Shown: piece by piece, positions 1 through 9,809 of the stretch | Numbering within the stretch: the stretch's first letter is position 1 | Layout of the letters: each line of letters starts with the position of its first letter | Source of the DNA: Gemmata obscuriglobus | GTDB lineage: Bacteria; Planctomycetota; Planctomycetia; Gemmatales; Gemmataceae | Direction of reading: 5' to 3' | Assembly: GCF_008065095.1 (NCBI RefSeq) | Contig: NZ_CP042911.1 | Span: forward strand, 750,001-782,000 | Length of the DNA stretch: 32,000 bases | Program-made: the position numbers and the translations under genes | Notes under the pieces: generated by a model | Told to the model about the DNA's origin: nothing | Databases searched by the model: none | Seen by the model: the letters and a program-made list of their open reading frames with translations, nothing else

Positions 1-895
1 TGTACGTCACCACCTGATTCCCGTGCCACGGCTCGACGGTTGCGATCACCCGGGCGGCTTTACTCACTTGCCCCGGTTTGATCTCGCTCGCACCGCGGCT
101 GCCCTTGGGGTTGGCCTGGTTGCCTTCACCGATTTTGTTCACCGACCAGCCGGTCCCGCCCCCGCGGAGCACATGGACGCCGTCGTAGCTTGTGACCAGC
201 ACGCCGGTCATGGGGCGCCCCCCGGCGCCGCTATGTCCGAGAAGGGCGAAGTTGTGGCACACGTGCAGTTCTTCCGAGAGTACCTGCGTCTTCCAGTTTT
301 CCTTCTTCTCGGGCTCCTTTGCCGGTACCTTCAACGCCACGATGCGAACCGGCTTGCCGTCGGTCCAGTTGCCCTTCGCGCTCGACCCACGGCCCATCAG
401 CGGCACGTGAACGATTTCCGGCTTCCCGTCGCCGTCGATGTCGAAGCAGCGCACGCGGTGGACCGTCGGCTCCTCGCAGGGGAGTTCGTACATCGCCCAC
501 TCTTTGGTCGCGTCTGCACCGCGTTTCAGCCACACGAGTTGTCCCGGGTTTGCGGTGTCGAACGGCTTCCACGCCGCGCCGACCACCAGTTCCGGGAGCC
601 CGTCGCCGTCGATGTCGATCGGGGCGACACACACGTTGTCCGGCTTCGTCTTGCCGTCGAGGATGACGAACTTCTTCCAGCCCGCGCCCGCCTTCCCGGG
701 GTTCTGATACCAGACGACCTTGTGCTGATCGACCACCACGATGTCGGGCCTTTTGTCGCCATCAATGTCGGCGGTGACGACCGCGTACCCAATCTTCAGT
801 CCGGTGTCGATCTCTTGAGTTTTAAATCTCGGCGCGTCTGCGGCGAATGTCTGGAAACCGCAGAGTGCGGCGGTGACGGCGAGTAGGTGGCGCAC
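1..895 (-). CDS. Secreted FG-GAP/VCBS-repeat protein. Partial: the 3' end lies beyond the window start.
   Basis: My own reverse-strand translation from GTG (complement of 893-895) gives VRHLLAVTAALCGFQTFAADAP (signal-peptide-like). It then shows repeated DIDGDxxPD/E motifs (ADIDGDKRPDIVVVD, PIDIDGDGLPELVV, CFDIDGDGKPEIVHV), which are typical of FG-GAP Ca-binding repeats. The frame stays open to position 1. It is absent from the ORF track because it has no stop codon in the window. The + strand ORF 23..886 is its antisense shadow. Confidence 0.8.
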   Translation of the reverse strand, partial: MRHLLAVTAALCGFQTFAADAPRFKTQEIDTGLKIGYAVVTADIDGDKRPDIVVVDQHKVVWYQNPGKAGAGWKKFVILDGKTKPDNVCVAPIDIDGDGLPELVVGAAWKPFDTANPGQLVWLKRGADATKEWAMYELPCEEPTVHRVRCFDIDGDGKPEIVHVPLMGRGSSAKGNWTDGKPVRIVALKVPAKEPEKKENWKTQVLSEELHVCHNFALLGHSGAGGRPMTGVLVTSYDGVHVLRGGGTGWSVNKIGEGNQANPKGSRGASEIKPGQVSKAARVIATVEPWHGNQVVTY

Positions 896-1071
896 GGCAA
901 CTGGTTCTCACGGGATGGGAAGATGGGGCGGCTCCGCGGAGCGCCCAGCTTACCACACCGACCCGTTCGGTACACAACTCCTTGCGGCCCGACAGTTGGA
1001 ACCGGACAATACGCCTCTGAGGTTGCCCGGCGCCCGGTTTGTGGGATCCTGAACGCACGAGGAAACGGTTG

Positions 1072-1860
1072 ATGTCGATACCCGCGTCTCACCGCCCGGC
1101 CCGGGAATGGCTCCTGCTCCTGATCGCGCTGGCGGTCGTGGCGGTGGTGGTGGCGCCGCTGTGGCAGTTGATGGGCAGCCCGGAGTCCCGGGCCGAACTG
1201 GAGGCGCGGTGGACCCGGGACCGGCTCGCGAAGCTGTTCCTCGGCTTCGAGCAGGTGCTGTGTTACGTTTGCGCGGCGTGGGCCGTACTGATCCTCCAGA
1301 GCCGGTTCCGCGAGGTGCTGGCCCAGCGCCGGGCGTTCGCCCTGGACCTGTTGCCCACGGAAGAGGGGGCACGCATCTTGCCCGAAGACGCCCGCCCGCT
1401 CGGTCGGAAGCTCGAGCAGGTGACCGCCGGCCGGCCGCTCGTCCTGGCGAACCTGGTGCGGCTGGGGCTGGGGAAGTTCGCCGTGAGCAAGTCCGCGACC
1501 GACGTCGCGGAGGTGGTCCGGAACCAGGCCGATGTCGAAATGTCGCGGATGGTGACCGGGATGTCCACGGTCCACTACCTCGCCTGGGCGATCCCGGCGA
1601 TCGGTTTCGTCGGCACCGTCCGCGGGCTGGGCGGCGCGTTCGGCGCCGAAGCGACCGACATCGCGGAGTTCACGCGCCAGGCGAAGGACCAACTGAAGGT
1701 CGCGTTCGACTGCACGCTGGTGGCCCTCGTGCTGAGCCTCGTGCTGATGTATTTGGTCCACGCGGTGCAGCGGGCGGAGGAGTCGCTCGTCACGGACGCG
1801 CAGCAGTACTGCCAGGAGCACCTCCTGCTGCGGTTGTACTCAGGGGGCGAGGGGGAGTGA
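1072..1860 (+). CDS. ExbB/TolQ/MotA-family proton-channel protein (stator 'A' subunit-like)
   Basis: ATG at 1072 is preceded by GAGGA (1059-1063); the ORF track's TTG at 1039 is the maximal start. There are hydrophobic helices near the N-terminus plus the family signature IPAIGFVGTVRGLGGAF (compare E. coli ExbB GLLGTVWGIMHAF). A final TM reads FDCTLVALVLSLVLMYLV. The two channel Thr (T182 codon 1615-1617, T215 codon 1714-1716) are 33 residues apart, the same spacing as ExbB T148/T181 and TolQ T145/T178. Confidence 0.85.
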   Translation: MSIPASHRPAREWLLLLIALAVVAVVVAPLWQLMGSPESRAELEARWTRDRLAKLFLGFEQVLCYVCAAWAVLILQSRFREVLAQRRAFALDLLPTEEGARILPEDARPLGRKLEQVTAGRPLVLANLVRLGLGKFAVSKSATDVAEVVRNQADVEMSRMVTGMSTVHYLAWAIPAIGFVGTVRGLGGAFGAEATDIAEFTRQAKDQLKVAFDCTLVALVLSLVLMYLVHAVQRAEESLVTDAQQYCQEHLLLRLYSGGEGE

Positions 1861-1954: not shown

Positions 1955-3181
1955 ATGCTCTGGTCCCGCAAGCCCGCTCCGGTTCACGACCGCCACCGCG
2001 CGGTCGGCATCGACCTGACCGCGAGCCGCGCCCGCGCGGAAGCGGCGGGCGAGAAGTCGCGCGCGCTGGTGCTCGACGCCCCGGACGAGGAGCTCGCGCT
2101 GTTCGTCGCCGGCGACCGGCGCGGGCCGGAGGTCGGGCGCGCCGGGGTCGGGTTGTACCGCAAGCTGCCGCACCTCGTTTGCTCCAACTTCCTCCCTGCG
2201 CTCGGGCAGTCGCGCGAGTGGAAGCTGGGCCGGCACACGCTCACGGCCGAGGCCGCGCTCGGGCTGGTGTTCGACCGGCTCCGGGCGGTTATTGGGGGGG
2301 AGTCGGACGGCACCGCGCTGGCGCTGCCGGCGTACCTGACGCCCTCGCAGGTGACCCGCGTCGGCGCCGCGGCGGGCCGCGCCAAGTTCGCCCTCAAGGG
2401 CACCGCGGTCGGCGGGCTGGCGCTGGCCGCGGACCGCGCCGCCGGGGTCCTCGGCGGGGACGGGGCCGGCCCCCCGCCGGCCGCCGGCTGGGTGGTGCCG
2501 CTGCGGCCCGGCGCGAGCGGCCCCGGCGCCGTGATGGTGCTCGACGCCGACGAGTTCGCCGTGTCGGCGCTGCTGGTGGCGGTCGACCGGGAGCAGGTGC
2601 GCGCGGTCGGTGGGGCGGCGTGGCCGCGGCTCTCGGTCAAGGTCTGGAAGGAGCGGCTCCTGGACGCCGTTGCGGACCGGTGCGTCAAGTTGTGCCGTCG
2701 CGACCCGCGCGACTCGGGCGAGGCCGAGCAACTGCTGTTCGAGCAACTGGACGAGGCGTTCGACCGCGCCCGCGCCGGCCAGCGCATCGGGCTGACCGTC
2801 CGCACCGCGCACTGGTTCCAGGACATCGTTCAGCAGCCCGAAGAGTTCGAGGCGCACTGCTCGGCGCTGGTCCGGCTCGCCGGCGAGTCGGTGCGCGACT
2901 TCGTAAACGGTATCGGGCTGGCCGAGCCGCCCCGCGCGGTCTGGCTGACCGACGCCGCCGGGCGCCTCCCCGGGTTCGTCCGGGCGGTCCACGCGAACAC
3001 CCCCGAGGGCACGGCGGTCGAGATCCTGCCCCCGAACGCCGTTGCGGCGGCGGCGGCGGCGCTGGTGCCGCGGTGGCTCACCGGGGCGCTCCCCCGGGCG
3101 CACCTCGATAGCCTGATCCCGCTGCCCCCGCGACCGGCCGCCCCGGCCGGCGCGCGAGCGACCCCGCGCGCCAGCGGGTGA
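1955..3181 (+). CDS. Hsp70/actin (ASKHA)-fold protein with degenerate nucleotide-binding motifs
   Basis: The order of Hsp70 landmarks is preserved. AVGIDLTAS matches [45 protein letters not shown] matches [38 protein letters not shown] matches [29 protein letters not shown] matches VLLVGGSTRIPxVQ. There is no signal peptide or TM. An alternative GTG start lies at 1901. Confidence 0.7.
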   Translation: [408 protein letters not shown]

Positions 3182-3205: not shown

Positions 3206-4720
3206 ATGCGAATCCGCCACAAGCAGCCCACGCTGGTCAGCATGTGGATGCTGGACGTGTTCTGCTGCGCGCTGGGGTGCGTCACGCTCCTGTTCCTGCT
3301 GAACAGCCGGCTGGCGACGGACGCCGCCCGCGCCAGCCGCGACGCCCGCGCCGACCTCGCGCACACCGACCAGCAGCTCGCCACCGCCCTCGCGGCGCTC
3401 GAAACCACCCGGACCAAGCTCGCGACCGAAGAAGCCGAACGCGGGAAGCTGACCGCGTCGCTCGCCGAGCTTGAAGGCGCGCGGCTCAAACTGGTTGACG
3501 AGTCCCGAGCACTCACCGAGGACCTCAAACTCGCCCGTACCGAGAAGGATGAAGCCGGGCGTAAACTTGACACCGCACGCGACGAGCTGAAAACCGCGCG
3601 GACCCTCCTCGATTCGACTCGAGAGAGCCTCGCCGGGCTCGAAAAGAAGGCCACCGCCACCGCGAAAGAGCTGGCCGACGCGCGGGCCGAGGCCGCCACC
3701 GCCGACCGGCTCCTCAAGGCGCGTCAGACCGACATCGACGAGCTCGCCAAGAAGGACGCCGCCCGGGCCACCCAGCTCGACGGCCTCCGGCGCTCGATGC
3801 TGTCCAAGGACGCCGAGCGGTCGGCGCTGGACGCGCAGCTCGCGGAGGCGCGCAAGGAACTCGCCGAGCTCGACGCCAAGCTCCGCGCGACCCGGCGGGA
3901 GCTGGACGCGCAGATCGCCGCCACGAAGGCCGGGGCCGCGAAAACGGGCGAGGAACTCGGCACCGCCCGCGCGCAGATCAAGGACCTGAACAAGAAGGTC
4001 GACGACGCGAACGCCACCATTATTGACCTCCAGGGTGAGAAGGCGAAGCTGGCCGACAAGTACGACCGGTTCCAGAAGGAAGCGGAGACGCGGTTCGCCG
4101 GGGTCGCGATGACCGGCAAGCGGGTCGTGTTCCTCGTGGACATGTCCGGCAGTATGGGCAAGCGTGACCTTCAGACTCTGGACGGTACGAAGTGGCCGCT
4201 GGTGGTCGAAACGGTGTGCAAAGTGATGCGCAGCATCTCGACGCTGGAGCGCTACCAGGTGGTCGTGTTCTCCAGTTCCGCCCGCTGGCTCTTTGACGAC
4301 GGGGAGTGGTGCTCGTTCGACGGCGAAAAATCCGTCGTCCGGGTACGCGACGCGCTGTTGAAAACGAAGCCGGTGGACGACACCAACATGTACGCGGCGT
4401 TCGAGAAGGCGTTCGGCCTGAAGACCTCGGGGCTCGACACGATGTACCTGTTCTCCGACGGCCTGCCGACGAGCGGCCCCGGGCTAACGCGGGAGCAGGA
4501 GAAAGCGAACCCGCCGCTGTCGGAGTCGGAACTCGGGGTGATCCTCGGTAAGCACGTGCGCGACACGCTCGCGTGCACGTGGAACAAGCCCGCTGCGGGG
4601 CAGTCGCGGGTGCGGATCAACGCCATCGGGTTCTACTTCGAGAGCGTCGAGGTGGGGGCGTTCCTCTGGTCGCTCGCGCGTGACAACGACGGGAGCTTCG
4701 TGGGGATGTCCAAACCGTAA
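3206..4720 (+). CDS. Membrane-anchored protein: TolR/ExbD-like TM helix (Asp17), long coiled coil, C-terminal vWA domain with an intact MIDAS
   Basis: A strong SD AGGAGG (3192-3197) precedes ATG 3206. The N-terminus KQPTLVSMWMLDVFCCALGCVTLLFLL resembles TolR INIVPLLDVLLVLLLIF and ExbD INVTPFIDVMLVLLIIF, including the LDV Asp (codon 3254-3256). Residues about 35-300 are Ala/Glu/Lys/Arg/Leu-rich heptad-like sequence. The vWA region reads KRVVFLVDMSGSMG (DxSxS, D312/S314/S316), then DDTNMY (T393) and LFSDGLPT (D418). Confidence 0.85.
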   Translation: MRIRHKQPTLVSMWMLDVFCCALGCVTLLFLLNSRLATDAARASRDARADLAHTDQQLATALAALETTRTKLATEEAERGKLTASLAELEGARLKLVDESRALTEDLKLARTEKDEAGRKLDTARDELKTARTLLDSTRESLAGLEKKATATAKELADARAEAATADRLLKARQTDIDELAKKDAARATQLDGLRRSMLSKDAERSALDAQLAEARKELAELDAKLRATRRELDAQIAATKAGAAKTGEELGTARAQIKDLNKKVDDANATIIDLQGEKAKLADKYDRFQKEAETRFAGVAMTGKRVVFLVDMSGSMGKRDLQTLDGTKWPLVVETVCKVMRSISTLERYQVVVFSSSARWLFDDGEWCSFDGEKSVVRVRDALLKTKPVDDTNMYAAFEKAFGLKTSGLDTMYLFSDGLPTSGPGLTREQEKANPPLSESELGVILGKHVRDTLACTWNKPAAGQSRVRINAIGFYFESVEVGAFLWSLARDNDGSFVGMSKP

Positions 4721-5026: not shown

Positions 5027-6085
5027 ATGTCACTTTATCCGAAGGGTCTGCGTCGCGGCTTTACGCTGATCGAATTGCTGGTAGTGATCGCGATTATCGC
5101 GATCTTGATCGGGCTGCTGTTGCCCGCCGTCCAGAAGGTGCGTGAAGCGGCAGCACGCATTAAGTGTACGAACAACCTGAAGCAGATCGCCATCGCGTGC
5201 CACGGGTTCCACGACGCCAACCAGCGGTTCCCAGCCGGCACCACGCTCGGCAAGGGCCGGAACGGCAACGGCTGGTACACGAACGCGCACGCCTACGACA
5301 ACCCGGCCGCCGGGTGGACCAACGCCACCACCAGCTACCCGGCCGACGGCCCGTTCTGGTCGTGGGCCATGCGGATCGCTCCGTACATGGAGCTGGACAA
5401 CGTCCAGAAGGCCGCCAACATGAGTGGCACCCCCGCCGGCTGGCCGTGGTGGCAGATCATCCCGGGAACTACCGGCGGCAGCAACACGGTGGTCGGCATC
5501 CAGGCGAAGACGTTCATCTGTCCTTCGGACTCGCGGTCTGACCTGTTCTGGACCGAGTCCGGCACCGGGAACCGCGCCGCCCTCACCGACTACATGGCGG
5601 TCACCGGCCGGGACACGTACAAGGAGACCATCTCCGGGAGCAAGCTGGCGGGTCAGGACGGGATCATGTACGTGAACTCGTCGGTCAAGATCGCGGGCAT
5701 CACCGACGGCACCAGCAACACGCTGATGATCGGGGAGCGCCCGCCGGCGAACAGCCTGGAGTACGGGTGGATGTGGGCCGGGGCCGGGTACGACCCCGGC
5801 GCGTTCGGCGCGGGTGACGTGGTGCTCGGGGTGCGCGAGCGGATCCCGTCGATCAACGACGCCCCGGGCGTGTACGGGCCGGGCAACCTGAACCAGGACA
5901 CCCACTTCAACCACTACTGGAGCCTGCACACGGGCGGCGCGATGTGGGCCCGGGCAGACGGCTCGGTGCAGTTCATCGCCTACTCGGCCGGGTCCCAGGT
6001 GGTCACCCAGGTCAACGGGGTCAACGTGACCCTCCTTGAGGCGATGGCCTCGCGGGCGGGCGGCGAAGTGTTTGCCGCCCCGTGA
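5027..6085 (+). CDS. DUF1559 / H-X9-DG protein with prepilin-type N-terminal cleavage/methylation domain
   Basis: N-terminus [56 protein letters not shown]-terminal [17 protein letters not shown] fits the H-X9-DG motif. This is a hallmark planctomycete family. Confidence 0.9.
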
Positions 6086-8771: not shown

Positions 8772-9809
8772 ATGCTCTTCTCTCCCATCCGCGCGCGCCG
8801 CGGGTTCACGCTCATCGAGTTGCTGGTGGTGATCGCGATCATCGCGATTCTGATCGGGCTGTTGCTGCCGGCCGTGCAGAAGGTGCGCGAGGCCGCCGCC
8901 CGCATGAAGTGCCAGAACAACCTCAAGCAGCTCGGGCTCGCGGTCCACAACTTCCACGACGTGATGAACGGGCTCCCGAGCACCCGGTACACCACCCCGG
9001 TCGGCACCCCGAACCGCGGGGCGGCCCCGGTGTACGACACGATCAGCGGGTTCGTGTACCTGCTCCCGTACGCGGAGCAGGCGAACCTGAAGGACTCCAT
9101 TTACAACAACGCGGCCTTCGTCGCCGGCACCGGCGGCGCCCCCTGGGACTCGAACTTCGCGCCTTGGACCGTCGTCCTCTCGCTGTTCCAGTGCCCGTCC
9201 GACGCCGGCACGACGGCCAGCGGCACGGCCCCGCGGAACTACCACATGAACGTCGGCGACCGGTACGACGGCAGCCGCGGCGCGTTCCAGGCGGTCCCGC
9301 AGGGCGGGGCCACCCCCGAAAAGCACAGCGCCGGGCTGCTGGCCATCAGCGACGGCACGAGCAACACGCTCCTCTTCTCCGAGCGCCGGCGGCCGACCGG
9401 CGCCAACGAGATCGCCCGGTTGGGGCTGACCGCCTCGACCGTGCCGGGCGACTGCCGCGCGCTGTGGAACGGCACCCAGTACAGCGCCGTCGTCACGCAC
9501 ACCCCGTCGAGCCGGTACGGCGACGGCCGGTCCCTCTACGGCGAGATCCTGACCGTCCTGCCGCCGAACGGCCCCGGGTGCCACTCGGACTCCGGGTGGG
9601 ACGGGAACCGCGGGTTCTTCACCGCGAACAGCAACCACACCGGCGGGGTGAACGCGTGCCTGGCCGACGGGAGCGTCCGGTTCGTCCGCGACAGCGTCAG
9701 CGTCGGCGACCAGACCGTCAACTCCAGCACTGTGGCCGGGACCAGCCCCTACGGCGTCTGGGGCGCGCTCGGCAGCCGCAACGGGGGCGAGGTCGTCACC
9801 CTCGACTGA
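8772..9809 (+). CDS. DUF1559 / H-X9-DG protein with prepilin-type N-terminal domain (paralog of 5027..6085)
   Basis: [55 protein letters not shown], plus HTGGVNACLADGSVRFV (H-X9-DG). The first ~130 nt after the RGF codons are also closely similar to 5052-5190 at the DNA level. Confidence 0.9.
   Translation: MLFSPIRARRGFTLIELLVVIAIIAILIGLLLPAVQKVREAAARMKCQNNLKQLGLAVHNFHDVMNGLPSTRYTTPVGTPNRGAAPVYDTISGFVYLLPYAEQANLKDSIYNNAAFVAGTGGAPWDSNFAPWTVVLSLFQCPSDAGTTASGTAPRNYHMNVGDRYDGSRGAFQAVPQGGATPEKHSAGLLAISDGTSNTLLFSERRRPTGANEIARLGLTASTVPGDCRALWNGTQYSAVVTHTPSSRYGDGRSLYGEILTVLPPNGPGCHSDSGWDGNRGFFTANSNHTGGVNACLADGSVRFVRDSVSVGDQTVNSSTVAGTSPYGVWGALGSRNGGEVVTLD

Follow-up and report, generated by a model that had tools for sequence, protein, structure and literature searches.

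A predicted motor-type transmembrane anchor, heptad coiled-coil stalk and vWA head in one protein of a conserved MotA/ExbB-family gene cassette of Gemmata obscuriglobus

To our knowledge, proteins of the MotA/ExbB family do not work without a single-pass partner carrying an acidic residue (MotAB, PomAB, ExbBD, TolQR, ZorAB, GldLM), and in all the well-understood motors of the class that we know of, this partner, the B subunit, has a small globular periplasmic domain. By what means such motors, GldLM apart, transfer work across the periplasm is debated. Here we analyse a gene, termed B, at 3206-4720 (+) of a 32,000-nucleotide stretch of the Gemmata obscuriglobus genome (contig NZ_CP042911.1, positions 750,001 to 782,000; "the window"). 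B follows two genes, A, which encodes a MotA/ExbB-family protein, and M, and its product combines a transmembrane (TM) helix bearing an Asp, a long coiled-coil stalk and a head of the von Willebrand factor A (vWA) kind. We consider it probable that B is the B-type (axle or anchor) subunit of a non-flagellar, ion-driven motor of the MotA/ExbB type, found among named hits only in the Gemmatales.

The closest described proteins are the transpore-helix vWA (TPH-vWA) proteins of the Idiomarina loihiensis type, which AlphaFold3 places with their Asp-bearing helix inside TolQ-like pentamers, replacing TolR beside tolQ-like genes (PMC12204202; Mol Biol Evol 2025). That study is computational, with no experiments; it proposes that the Asp faces a ring of Thr residues, and it describes usually two heterologous vWA genes and disordered regions near the vWA domain. 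TPH-vWA proteins and B have in common a single-pass Asp-bearing TM helix, a C-terminal vWA domain, a tolQ/motA-like gene and the lack of tolR or exbD. By description, the Gemmata cassette is set apart by its single B gene, which implies a homodimer, by a heptad coiled coil that forms a phase-conserved shaft, by an Hsp70-fold partner (with an FHA domain in some lineages) encoded between A and B, by a linked FG-GAP gene and by the restriction of the named hits to the Gemmatales. The initial annotation of this DNA knew of no stator-type anchor fused to a vWA domain among characterised motors; this holds for motors characterised by experiment, but because TPH-vWA proteins were predicted in 2025 such a fusion is no longer unprecedented (PMC12204202). 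Gemmata is not mentioned in the main text or the two supplementary text files of that paper (the gene sets in its figures lay outside this check), and the supplement text contains no TPH-vWA sequences. We found no description of the A-M-B cassette in the literature on Gemmata with TolQ or vWA, or on MotA with FHA, Hsp70 and vWA.

Other motor systems offer further points of comparison. With ExbD, TolR and MotB, whose 5:2 motors have been solved, B would share an N-in single TM helix with an Asp near its cytoplasmic end, and it shares a MotA/ExbB-family partner that keeps the pore Pro and Thr. It differs from these three in having no detectable homology to them and no ExbD-type or OmpA-like domain, flexible linker or plug; unlike theirs, its TM helix contains much Cys, Ala and Gly and runs directly into the coiled coil. 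GldM/PorM of the GldLM gliding/type 9 secretion motor is, like B, a single-pass protein; it sits as a dimer in a channel pentamer and has a long rigid periplasmic extension thought to transmit rotation (see also the review PMC9389320). GldM is not homologous to B, being a chain of globular domains with a different arrangement of charged residues and no vWA head. In a survey of MotAB homologues the B gene was consistently directly downstream of A (PMC12505986), unlike B of Gemmata.

The 504-residue product of the open reading frame at 3206-4720 (+) is 100% identical to a G. obscuriglobus entry named "VWA domain-containing protein", and its coordinates were checked codon by codon. The G+C content of its third and second codon positions (GC3 0.89, GC2 0.46) is usual for real genes in the window, and a Shine-Dalgarno-like AGGAGG lies 8-13 nt 5' of the ATG. 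The cassette reads A, M, B, with B last; its genes and the parts of B are the following (AF2, AlphaFold2; pLDDT, predicted local distance difference test; MIDAS, metal ion-dependent adhesion site).

1072-1860 (+): A, 262 aa, MotA/ExbB/TolQ-family subunit (Pfam MotA_ExbB); alternative TTG start at 1039
1955-3181 (+): M, 408 aa, soluble, predicted Hsp70 nucleotide-binding domain (NBD; actin-like ATPase) fold (AF2 and Foldseek)
3206-4720 (+): B, 504 aa plus stop, predicted axle/anchor subunit (translation, alignments, AF2)
3206-3238 (+): N-tail of B, MRIRHKQPTLV, predicted to be cytoplasmic (alignments, hydropathy)
3239-3301 (+): TM ("transpore") helix of B, SMWMLDVFCCALGCVTLLFLL (hydropathy, conservation); codon of Asp17 at 3254-3256
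3302-4096 (+): heptad coiled coil of B, residues 33-297, predicted periplasmic (periodicity, register, AF2 helices)
3911-3985 (+): Ala/Lys/Gly-rich stretch of B, about residues 236-260 (register shift, low pLDDT, insertions in relatives)
4097-4717 (+): C-terminal vWA domain of B, residues 298-504 (Pfam, Foldseek, alignments, AF2)
4139-4141, 4145-4147, 4151-4153, 4382-4384 and 4457-4459 (+): MIDAS codons of B for D312, S314, S316, T393 and D418, in that order

The sole hydrophobic segment of B is residues 12-32 (Kyte-Doolittle peak 14-32), within the N-terminal 32 residues MRIRHKQPTLV-SMWMLDVFCCALGCVTLLFLL. In mean column identity it stands above all other parts of B, with 0.80, the N-tail having 0.64, the vWA domain 0.60 and the stalk 0.31. 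Asp17 is invariant in 19 close relatives and in 26 relatives averaging about 33% identity; P8, L23 and G24 are likewise invariant in the latter set, C20 and C21 of the helix are nearly invariant, and H5 and K6 of the N-tail are invariant among the close relatives. The Asp lies five to seven residues into the helix from its N side, as do TolR D23 and ExbD D25. These data agree with the initial annotation, which had recognised a stator-type TM helix with an Asp in a three-part protein; hydropathy, periodicity, AF2 and Pfam place the TM Asp, the long helical stalk and the vWA head of B in the segments listed above, and in the cassette no other single-pass TM protein accompanies the MotA/ExbB-family gene.

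The sequence homology of this anchor to TolR/ExbD that had also been proposed did not hold up. Pfam ExbD and MotB_plug give no match to B (whole protein at E <= 1; residues 1-52 at E <= 10), and residues 1-52 searched alone match no Pfam family at all at E <= 10. Comparison of the N-terminal profile of B with TolR plus ExbD by hhalign, a target of two sequences, puts D17 on D23/D25 with a probability of 0.13% and E = 0.45, and the sole local match is six residues long (sMlDVl on P(L/F)(L/I)DV(L/M)). Because these profile matches are not significant, the likeness of the anchor to TolR/ExbD is one of function and position and not of shown homology. Pfam likewise finds no OmpA-like domain in B, and no ExbD-type periplasmic alpha/beta domain was found, the coiled coil and vWA domain standing in its place. 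None of 26 sequences has in its TM helix the His of the SHLS/His motif that marks TolA and TonB.

The putative channel partner retains what such a helix would face. A matches Pfam MotA_ExbB (PF01618) with E = 2.6e-9, above the gathering score, and has four hydrophobic segments in a MotA-like topology and a short C-terminus. Its pore motifs, AIPAIGFVGTVRGL (P175, T182) and AFDCT (D213, T215), lie in its last two helices, and across 58 sequences (53-100% identity) the conservation of both is 98% or higher. In alignment, T182 falls on TolQ T145/ExbB T148, T215 on TolQ T178/ExbB T181 and P175 on the pore Pro; MotA shares with A the pore Pro and the second Thr (MotA T209). We treat B as B-subunit-like because of the position of its Asp, the Asp-surrounding residues that A retains and the need of the A family for a partner. 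Judged by position and context it would work like a B subunit, yet it lies outside the ExbD/TolR and MotB families. By analogy with the solved MotAB, ExbBD and TolQR, the stoichiometry is presumably A5B2. Elsewhere in A, the sequence ILPEDARP (residues 102-109, 1375-1398) is strongly conserved in the cytoplasmic loop and is a candidate contact site for M.

Among the 50 loci with at least 4.9 kb of DNA upstream of B, 47 have the order A-M-B. In all six of the distant contigs examined, a MotA_ExbB gene is followed by M and then B in unrelated neighbourhoods, and the order is stable at B identities as low as 34%. Every locus examined has a single B gene, and none has an ExbD, TolR or MotB-type gene in the cassette, which leaves B as the sole candidate partner for the pore of A. 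Loci L017, L077 and L078 (and the short contig L016) carry a B homologue, but the 6 kb upstream contain neither A nor M; in L017 the genes downstream of B correspond to those at the Gemmata locus, pointing to a rearrangement or an insertion on the upstream side of B.

Relatives were detected by a genome scan in 119 genomes at species level, and all reliably labelled ones belong to the Gemmataceae/Gemmatales (Gemmata, Frigoriglobus, Urbifossiella, Fimbriiglobus, Limnoglobus, Zavarzinella). A profile of the vWA head, searched against 1.84 billion cluster representatives, found 177 clusters (50% identity) at E <= 1e-30; of the 150 clusters listed, nearly all are 420-620 aa long with the head at the C-terminus, and the N-terminal motif M(R/K)xRH(R/K)xPxxFxLSM(V/L)DVLCCALGCVILLWL is present in all but five of 30 sequences read. 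Judged from these sequences, B belongs to an old and conserved family and is not a recent fusion, so the earlier description of the protein as "chimeric" does not fit it. Some loci bear other labels, namely Alcaligenaceae (L037, L038, L065, L079), Bacteroidales (L046), Singulisphaera (L005) and Isosphaera (L025), and are 42-69% identical to the Gemmata cassette; such labels of metagenome-assembled genomes are probably wrong, or the contigs are mis-binned.

The stalk (residues 33-297, 265 residues) contains no Pro and consists to 82% of A, L, R, D, E, T and K (A 21.5%, L 14%, R 10%, D 10%, E 10%, T 9%, K 9%). Its hydrophobic residues recur with a period of 3.5 (power 3.47, against 0.146 +/- 0.14 in shuffled sequences; 0 of 2000 shuffles reached it), and one register is held for 24 heptads (residues 65-232), with Leu at a, Leu or Ala at d, and Arg, Glu or Lys at e and g. 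Of 25 distant relatives, 24 likewise show a significant heptad signal, despite the divergence of their stalks (31% conserved in sequence). The initial annotation had described this region as a coiled coil resembling TolA domain II. The coiled coil is confirmed and the resemblance is not: the B stalk has a heptad z of 22.5 and 18% hydrophobic residues, whereas domain II of E. coli TolA has a z of 0.4 and 6.8%. TolA, TonB and the SHLS-type vWA force transducers are membrane-anchored, elongated periplasmic proteins that are energised by MotA/ExbB-family motors and extend towards the outer membrane, as we propose for B; these proteins, however, bind the motor from outside through a Ser/His (SHLS) TM motif and act with a separate ExbD/TolR, and B lacks the motif. 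Matches of B to NCBIfam and PADLOC models (SMC, Rad50, LmuB, JetC and others) cover only residues ~40-300 and were rejected as coiled-coil compositional.

AF2 predicts helices at residues 10-147, 153-252 and 255-297 of B, mostly with pLDDT 85-92; the first, a single unbroken helix, carries the TM segment on into the stalk with no linker. Fully extended, the stalk would measure about 39 nm, and the coiled coils of the family (182-381 residues) roughly 27-57 nm. Among 350 family members, 86 different spacings from the Asp to the vWA domain (RFAG motif) occur, the shortest of 195 and the longest of 397 residues. These lengths are not distributed at random with respect to the heptad: modulo 7 they cluster at 2, 5 and 6, less often at 3, and their phase modulo 3.5 is non-uniform (Rayleigh R = 0.365, p ~7e-6, on distinct lengths only, which are phylogenetically non-independent), while periods of 3.0, 3.6, 3.67, 4, 5 and 7 give no signal (p > 0.79). 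Read from the sequences, the length of the stalk is free, but its hydrophobic seam keeps its phase all the way between membrane helix and head. The conserved phase and the unbroken helix 10-147 argue for one continuous, in-register coiled coil that is rigidly joined at both ends. A rigid, in-phase stalk is what would be expected of a shaft or of a tether whose geometry is critical.

Towards its distal end the stalk has an Ala/Lys-rich stretch, residues 236-260, which may be a hinge, because insertions, a register shift and low AF2 confidence coincide there. The register shifts at about residues 229-240, pLDDT falls below 50 at 244-259 (the lowest in the stalk), and ~236-260 is an insertion hot spot in relatives, where 14 or 28 residues, the length of two or four heptads, are added (alignment columns 283-317), so that protein lengths of 504, 518 and 532 aa result.

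The head (residues 298-504) matches Pfam VWA_2 (E = 2e-8) and VWA (E = 2e-4), and Foldseek relates it to the vWA domains of LapA, CMG2/ANTXR, TRAP and alpha2delta (E ~1e-7), that is, to an adhesion-type fold. The initial annotation had noted a complete MIDAS; its five ligands (D312-x-S314-x-S316, T393, D418) are invariant in the alignments of 19 close and 26 distant relatives. The AF2 model has these residues in the places expected of MIDAS ligands, where beta1 and beta4 end and ahead of helix 395-403. The head is thus predicted to be MIDAS-competent, and a metal-dependent role in adhesion may be inferred from its sequence and model. The C-terminal GSFVGMS(K/R)P (residues 497-504, 4694-4717) is invariant in close relatives and almost invariant in distant ones; such conservation is uncommon at the end of a protein, and the sequence may be a docking motif. 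A tblastn search of the vWA domain against 72,556 plasmids gave no match.

Relatives of the head occur in other architectures that bear on its location. In P0327 and P0374 the same vWA head follows an N-terminal Ser/Thr kinase and a TM helix, in P0365 it follows an nSTAND1 NTPase and a TM helix, and in P0333 it occurs with a caspase domain that comes after a signal-peptide-like N-terminus. The kinase, nSTAND1 and signal-peptide-like arrangements place the head outside the cytoplasm, and from these sequences the vWA head, joined to a short coiled coil, has the look of a portable module for binding or sensing in the periplasm. We accordingly favour, from sequence, an N-in topology for B with a periplasmic head. 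The charges flanking the TM helix bear on the same question: the N-tail has three Lys/Arg, one His and no acidic residue, and the 18 residues after the helix have four Lys/Arg and three acidic residues. Since this bias is weak, since cytoplasmic vWA co-chaperones exist (PMC7159879) and since the predicted fold of M is of a chaperone type, one could instead imagine B inverted, its coiled coil and vWA domain lying in the cytoplasm as one half of a chaperone/co-chaperone-like pair with M (as in MoxR-vWA), tethered beside the channel. We regard this as highly improbable: homologous heads follow a kinase and TM helix or a signal peptide, the N-tail is basic with no acidic residue, the position of the Asp matches that of N-in B subunits and the closest structural matches of the head are extracellular adhesion vWA domains.

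M has no Pfam, NCBIfam or PADLOC match and no TM segment in its hydropathy profile. Its AF2 model (pLDDT 70.9; predicted TM-score, pTM, 0.74) retrieves Hsp70/DnaK NBDs as all of the top 50 Foldseek hits (E ~1e-15, TM-score 0.60-0.71). The classification rests on the predicted fold, because sequence searches gave nothing meaningful (the M profile compared with the E. coli DnaK NBD by hhalign and with all PDB sequences by hmmsearch); a single M orthologue has a sub-threshold Pfam HSP70 match (E = 0.0048). We therefore describe M as a predicted member, by its modelled fold, of the Hsp70 NBD/actin-like ATPase superfamily. The Gly-rich phosphate-1 and phosphate-2 loops of that superfamily (DxGTT, DxGGGT) are replaced in M by conserved VGIDLTASR and VLDADEFAV. 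In four distant loci M is about 500 aa long, its Hsp70-like module carrying an FHA domain at the C-terminus (E 1e-12 to 1e-16; L088 6432-7970, L089 6460-7980, L090 1071-2597, L091 5492-6973). These proteins are homologous to Gemmata M (hhalign 99.9%, E 1e-31), and the M proteins of the Gemmata clade and of two further distant loci lack the FHA domain.

Divergent from A lies a gene that may supply the ligand of the head. The features upstream of A are these.

1-895 (-): 5' part (298 of 416 codons) of the FG-GAP gene (Pfam), divergent from the motor operon and cut by the start of the window
896-1071 (no strand): 176-bp intergenic region between the divergent FG-GAP gene and A (gene coordinates), presumed to be a shared promoter region

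The complete FG-GAP gene, in locus L001 (6440-7690), encodes 416 aa with matches to Pfam FG-GAP_3 (4e-26), FG-GAP (1e-16) and AUDH_beta_propeller (1e-16) and with a signal-peptide-like N-terminus, and the product is predicted to be a secreted beta-propeller. A divergent FG-GAP gene lies immediately upstream of A in 30 of the 50 loci, down to 43% B identity (Zavarzinella, Limnoglobus). The outer flanks are kept far less often: the next upstream gene in 3/50 loci, and the three downstream genes in 9/59, 8/59 and 0/59. This linkage above the background of synteny points to a functional link of the FG-GAP gene with the cassette. By analogy with the integrin head, in which an alpha-chain FG-GAP propeller is paired with a beta-I/vWA domain, the propeller is the best candidate for a ligand or co-receptor of the vWA head. 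Here the two domains are on separate polypeptides in another context, and the likeness to integrins is one of domain families only. A sigma-70 consensus scan found no match in 896-1071, and promoter/terminator, Rfam and tRNA scans of the region and the window were uninformative. A paralogous pair of genes in the window, 5027-6085 (+) and 8772-9809 (+), has a common pseudopilin-like N-terminal motif. We take both to be of the DUF1559 type, a family expanded in Planctomycetes; no link of the pair to the cassette was seen beyond the closest relatives.

The company that the vWA module keeps also raises the question of defence. The cassette could be an envelope-surveillance or conflict system in which the vWA domain is a periplasmic sensor and the channel and M transmit or execute the response, loosely like Zorya ZorAB. 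The coiled-coil-plus-vWA module is fused elsewhere to an nSTAND1 NTPase, a caspase and a Ser/Thr kinase, typical components of conflict and signalling systems (for the general theme, PMC7159879), some M relatives carry an FHA domain, and A has a weak PADLOC match to ZorA2 (E = 1.4e-4). That match, however, is limited to the generic MotA/ExbB core, and PADLOC has no specific match on B or M, those on B being coiled-coil noise. The hallmarks of Zorya ZorABCD (the long cytoplasmic tail of ZorA, the peptidoglycan-binding domain of ZorB, the effectors ZorC and ZorD) are all missing from the cassette, and no nuclease or other effector gene is present in it at the loci examined. The flanking genes are housekeeping genes, not conserved beyond the FG-GAP gene, and form no defence island; the same three-gene order persists to 34% B identity, with all named hits in the Gemmatales. 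We therefore think that a defence role is unlikely.

Several observations weigh against B as the B-type subunit of a motor. There is no statistically significant similarity of its TM region to ExbD, TolR or MotB (Pfam, hhalign), and insertion of B into the A pentamer is a step that we infer. A and B are separated by M, an uncommon arrangement for A/B pairs, and 3 of the 50 loci carry B without A and M upstream. The positive-inside charge bias is modest and, on the sequence, not decisive. In the AF2 monomer the stalk is interrupted at 148-152 and 253-254, and the pTM of only 0.43 leaves room for a fold-back. The degenerate phosphate loops make canonical ATPase activity of M doubtful, and FG-GAP adjacency is absent in 20 of the 50 loci and in the four distant loci with DNA.

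A hairpin at the 148-152 break was considered and set aside, since the heptad register is continuous there and the total length is phase-quantised; in the alignment, moreover, segments come and go in the membrane-proximal part of the stalk independently of the membrane-distal part. The first of the adverse points, together with the position of M and the three loci that lack A and M, would be explained if B were a plain membrane-anchored periplasmic adhesin or spacer, A used a B subunit encoded elsewhere, and the linkage reflected co-regulation only. A mere anchor, however, would not exceed the rest of the protein in conservation, nor keep an invariant buried Asp along with P8, L23, G24 and a Cys pair, and the phase of its stalk relative to the TM Asp would not be expected to be conserved. 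The A-M-B linkage, in 47 of 50 loci and in six of six distant ones, also speaks against it, and MotA/ExbB-family proteins are not known to function without an acidic single-pass partner. We consider the plain adhesin quite unlikely and retain B as the probable B-type subunit.

If B is such a subunit, two B chains would be oriented N-in with their Asp17 helices within a pentamer of A, facing the ring of Thr182 and Thr215. Asp17 would be the ion-binding site, and its protonation and deprotonation would couple ion flow to rotation of A against B. Each TM helix would continue without a linker into a parallel, two-stranded coiled coil that places the two vWA heads some 39 nm into the periplasm, where they could bind a carboxylate of an envelope partner through the MIDAS metal, the FG-GAP propeller being the leading candidate. 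Two modes of work can be envisaged. Were the heads anchored, B would be the stator and the rotating A ring would act on cytoplasmic M. Were A held by M instead, the stalk would be a drive shaft or a winding tether that delivers torque or tension at the outer envelope. In some lineages M could be recruited or regulated through phosphothreonine binding by its FHA domain.

The full assembly would be a four-component envelope machine of the Gemmatales, in which an ion-driven ring turns a rigid 30-60 nm coiled-coil shaft with an integrin-like vWA/FG-GAP tip, or is itself turned against it, and acts with an M of degenerate Hsp70/actin fold that reads phosphothreonine in some lineages; this larger proposal is tentative, and we would not call it likely. 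Myxococcus Agl-Glt has comparable parts, with a TolQR-like motor, the actin-fold MreB and the MIDAS-containing vWA adhesin CglB (PMC9946355). It differs in comprising at least 17 proteins and in having its vWA domain on a separate outer-membrane lipoprotein, and the analogy is functional, with homology at the level of domain families only. If the proposal is true, the machine would power an envelope process peculiar to bacteria that lack FtsZ, bud and have an enlarged periplasm; outer-membrane tethering or constriction, control of periplasmic spacing and capture of macromolecules are candidates.

Whatever the process, B is predicted to be one continuous helix from a proton-binding Asp to an adhesion head, unlike the well-understood B subunits, and would be the structured-stalk counterpart to the TPH-vWA class predicted in 2025. 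The two-fold variation in stalk length at a kept helical phase would amount to a natural experiment on the transmission of torque or tension. With three or four genes, a mutable MIDAS and an obvious candidate ligand, the cassette may offer a compact model for a rotating shaft or a wound tether. For the Gemmatales, whose division, membrane architecture and uptake are largely unexplained, it would represent an uncharacterised energised system of the cell envelope.

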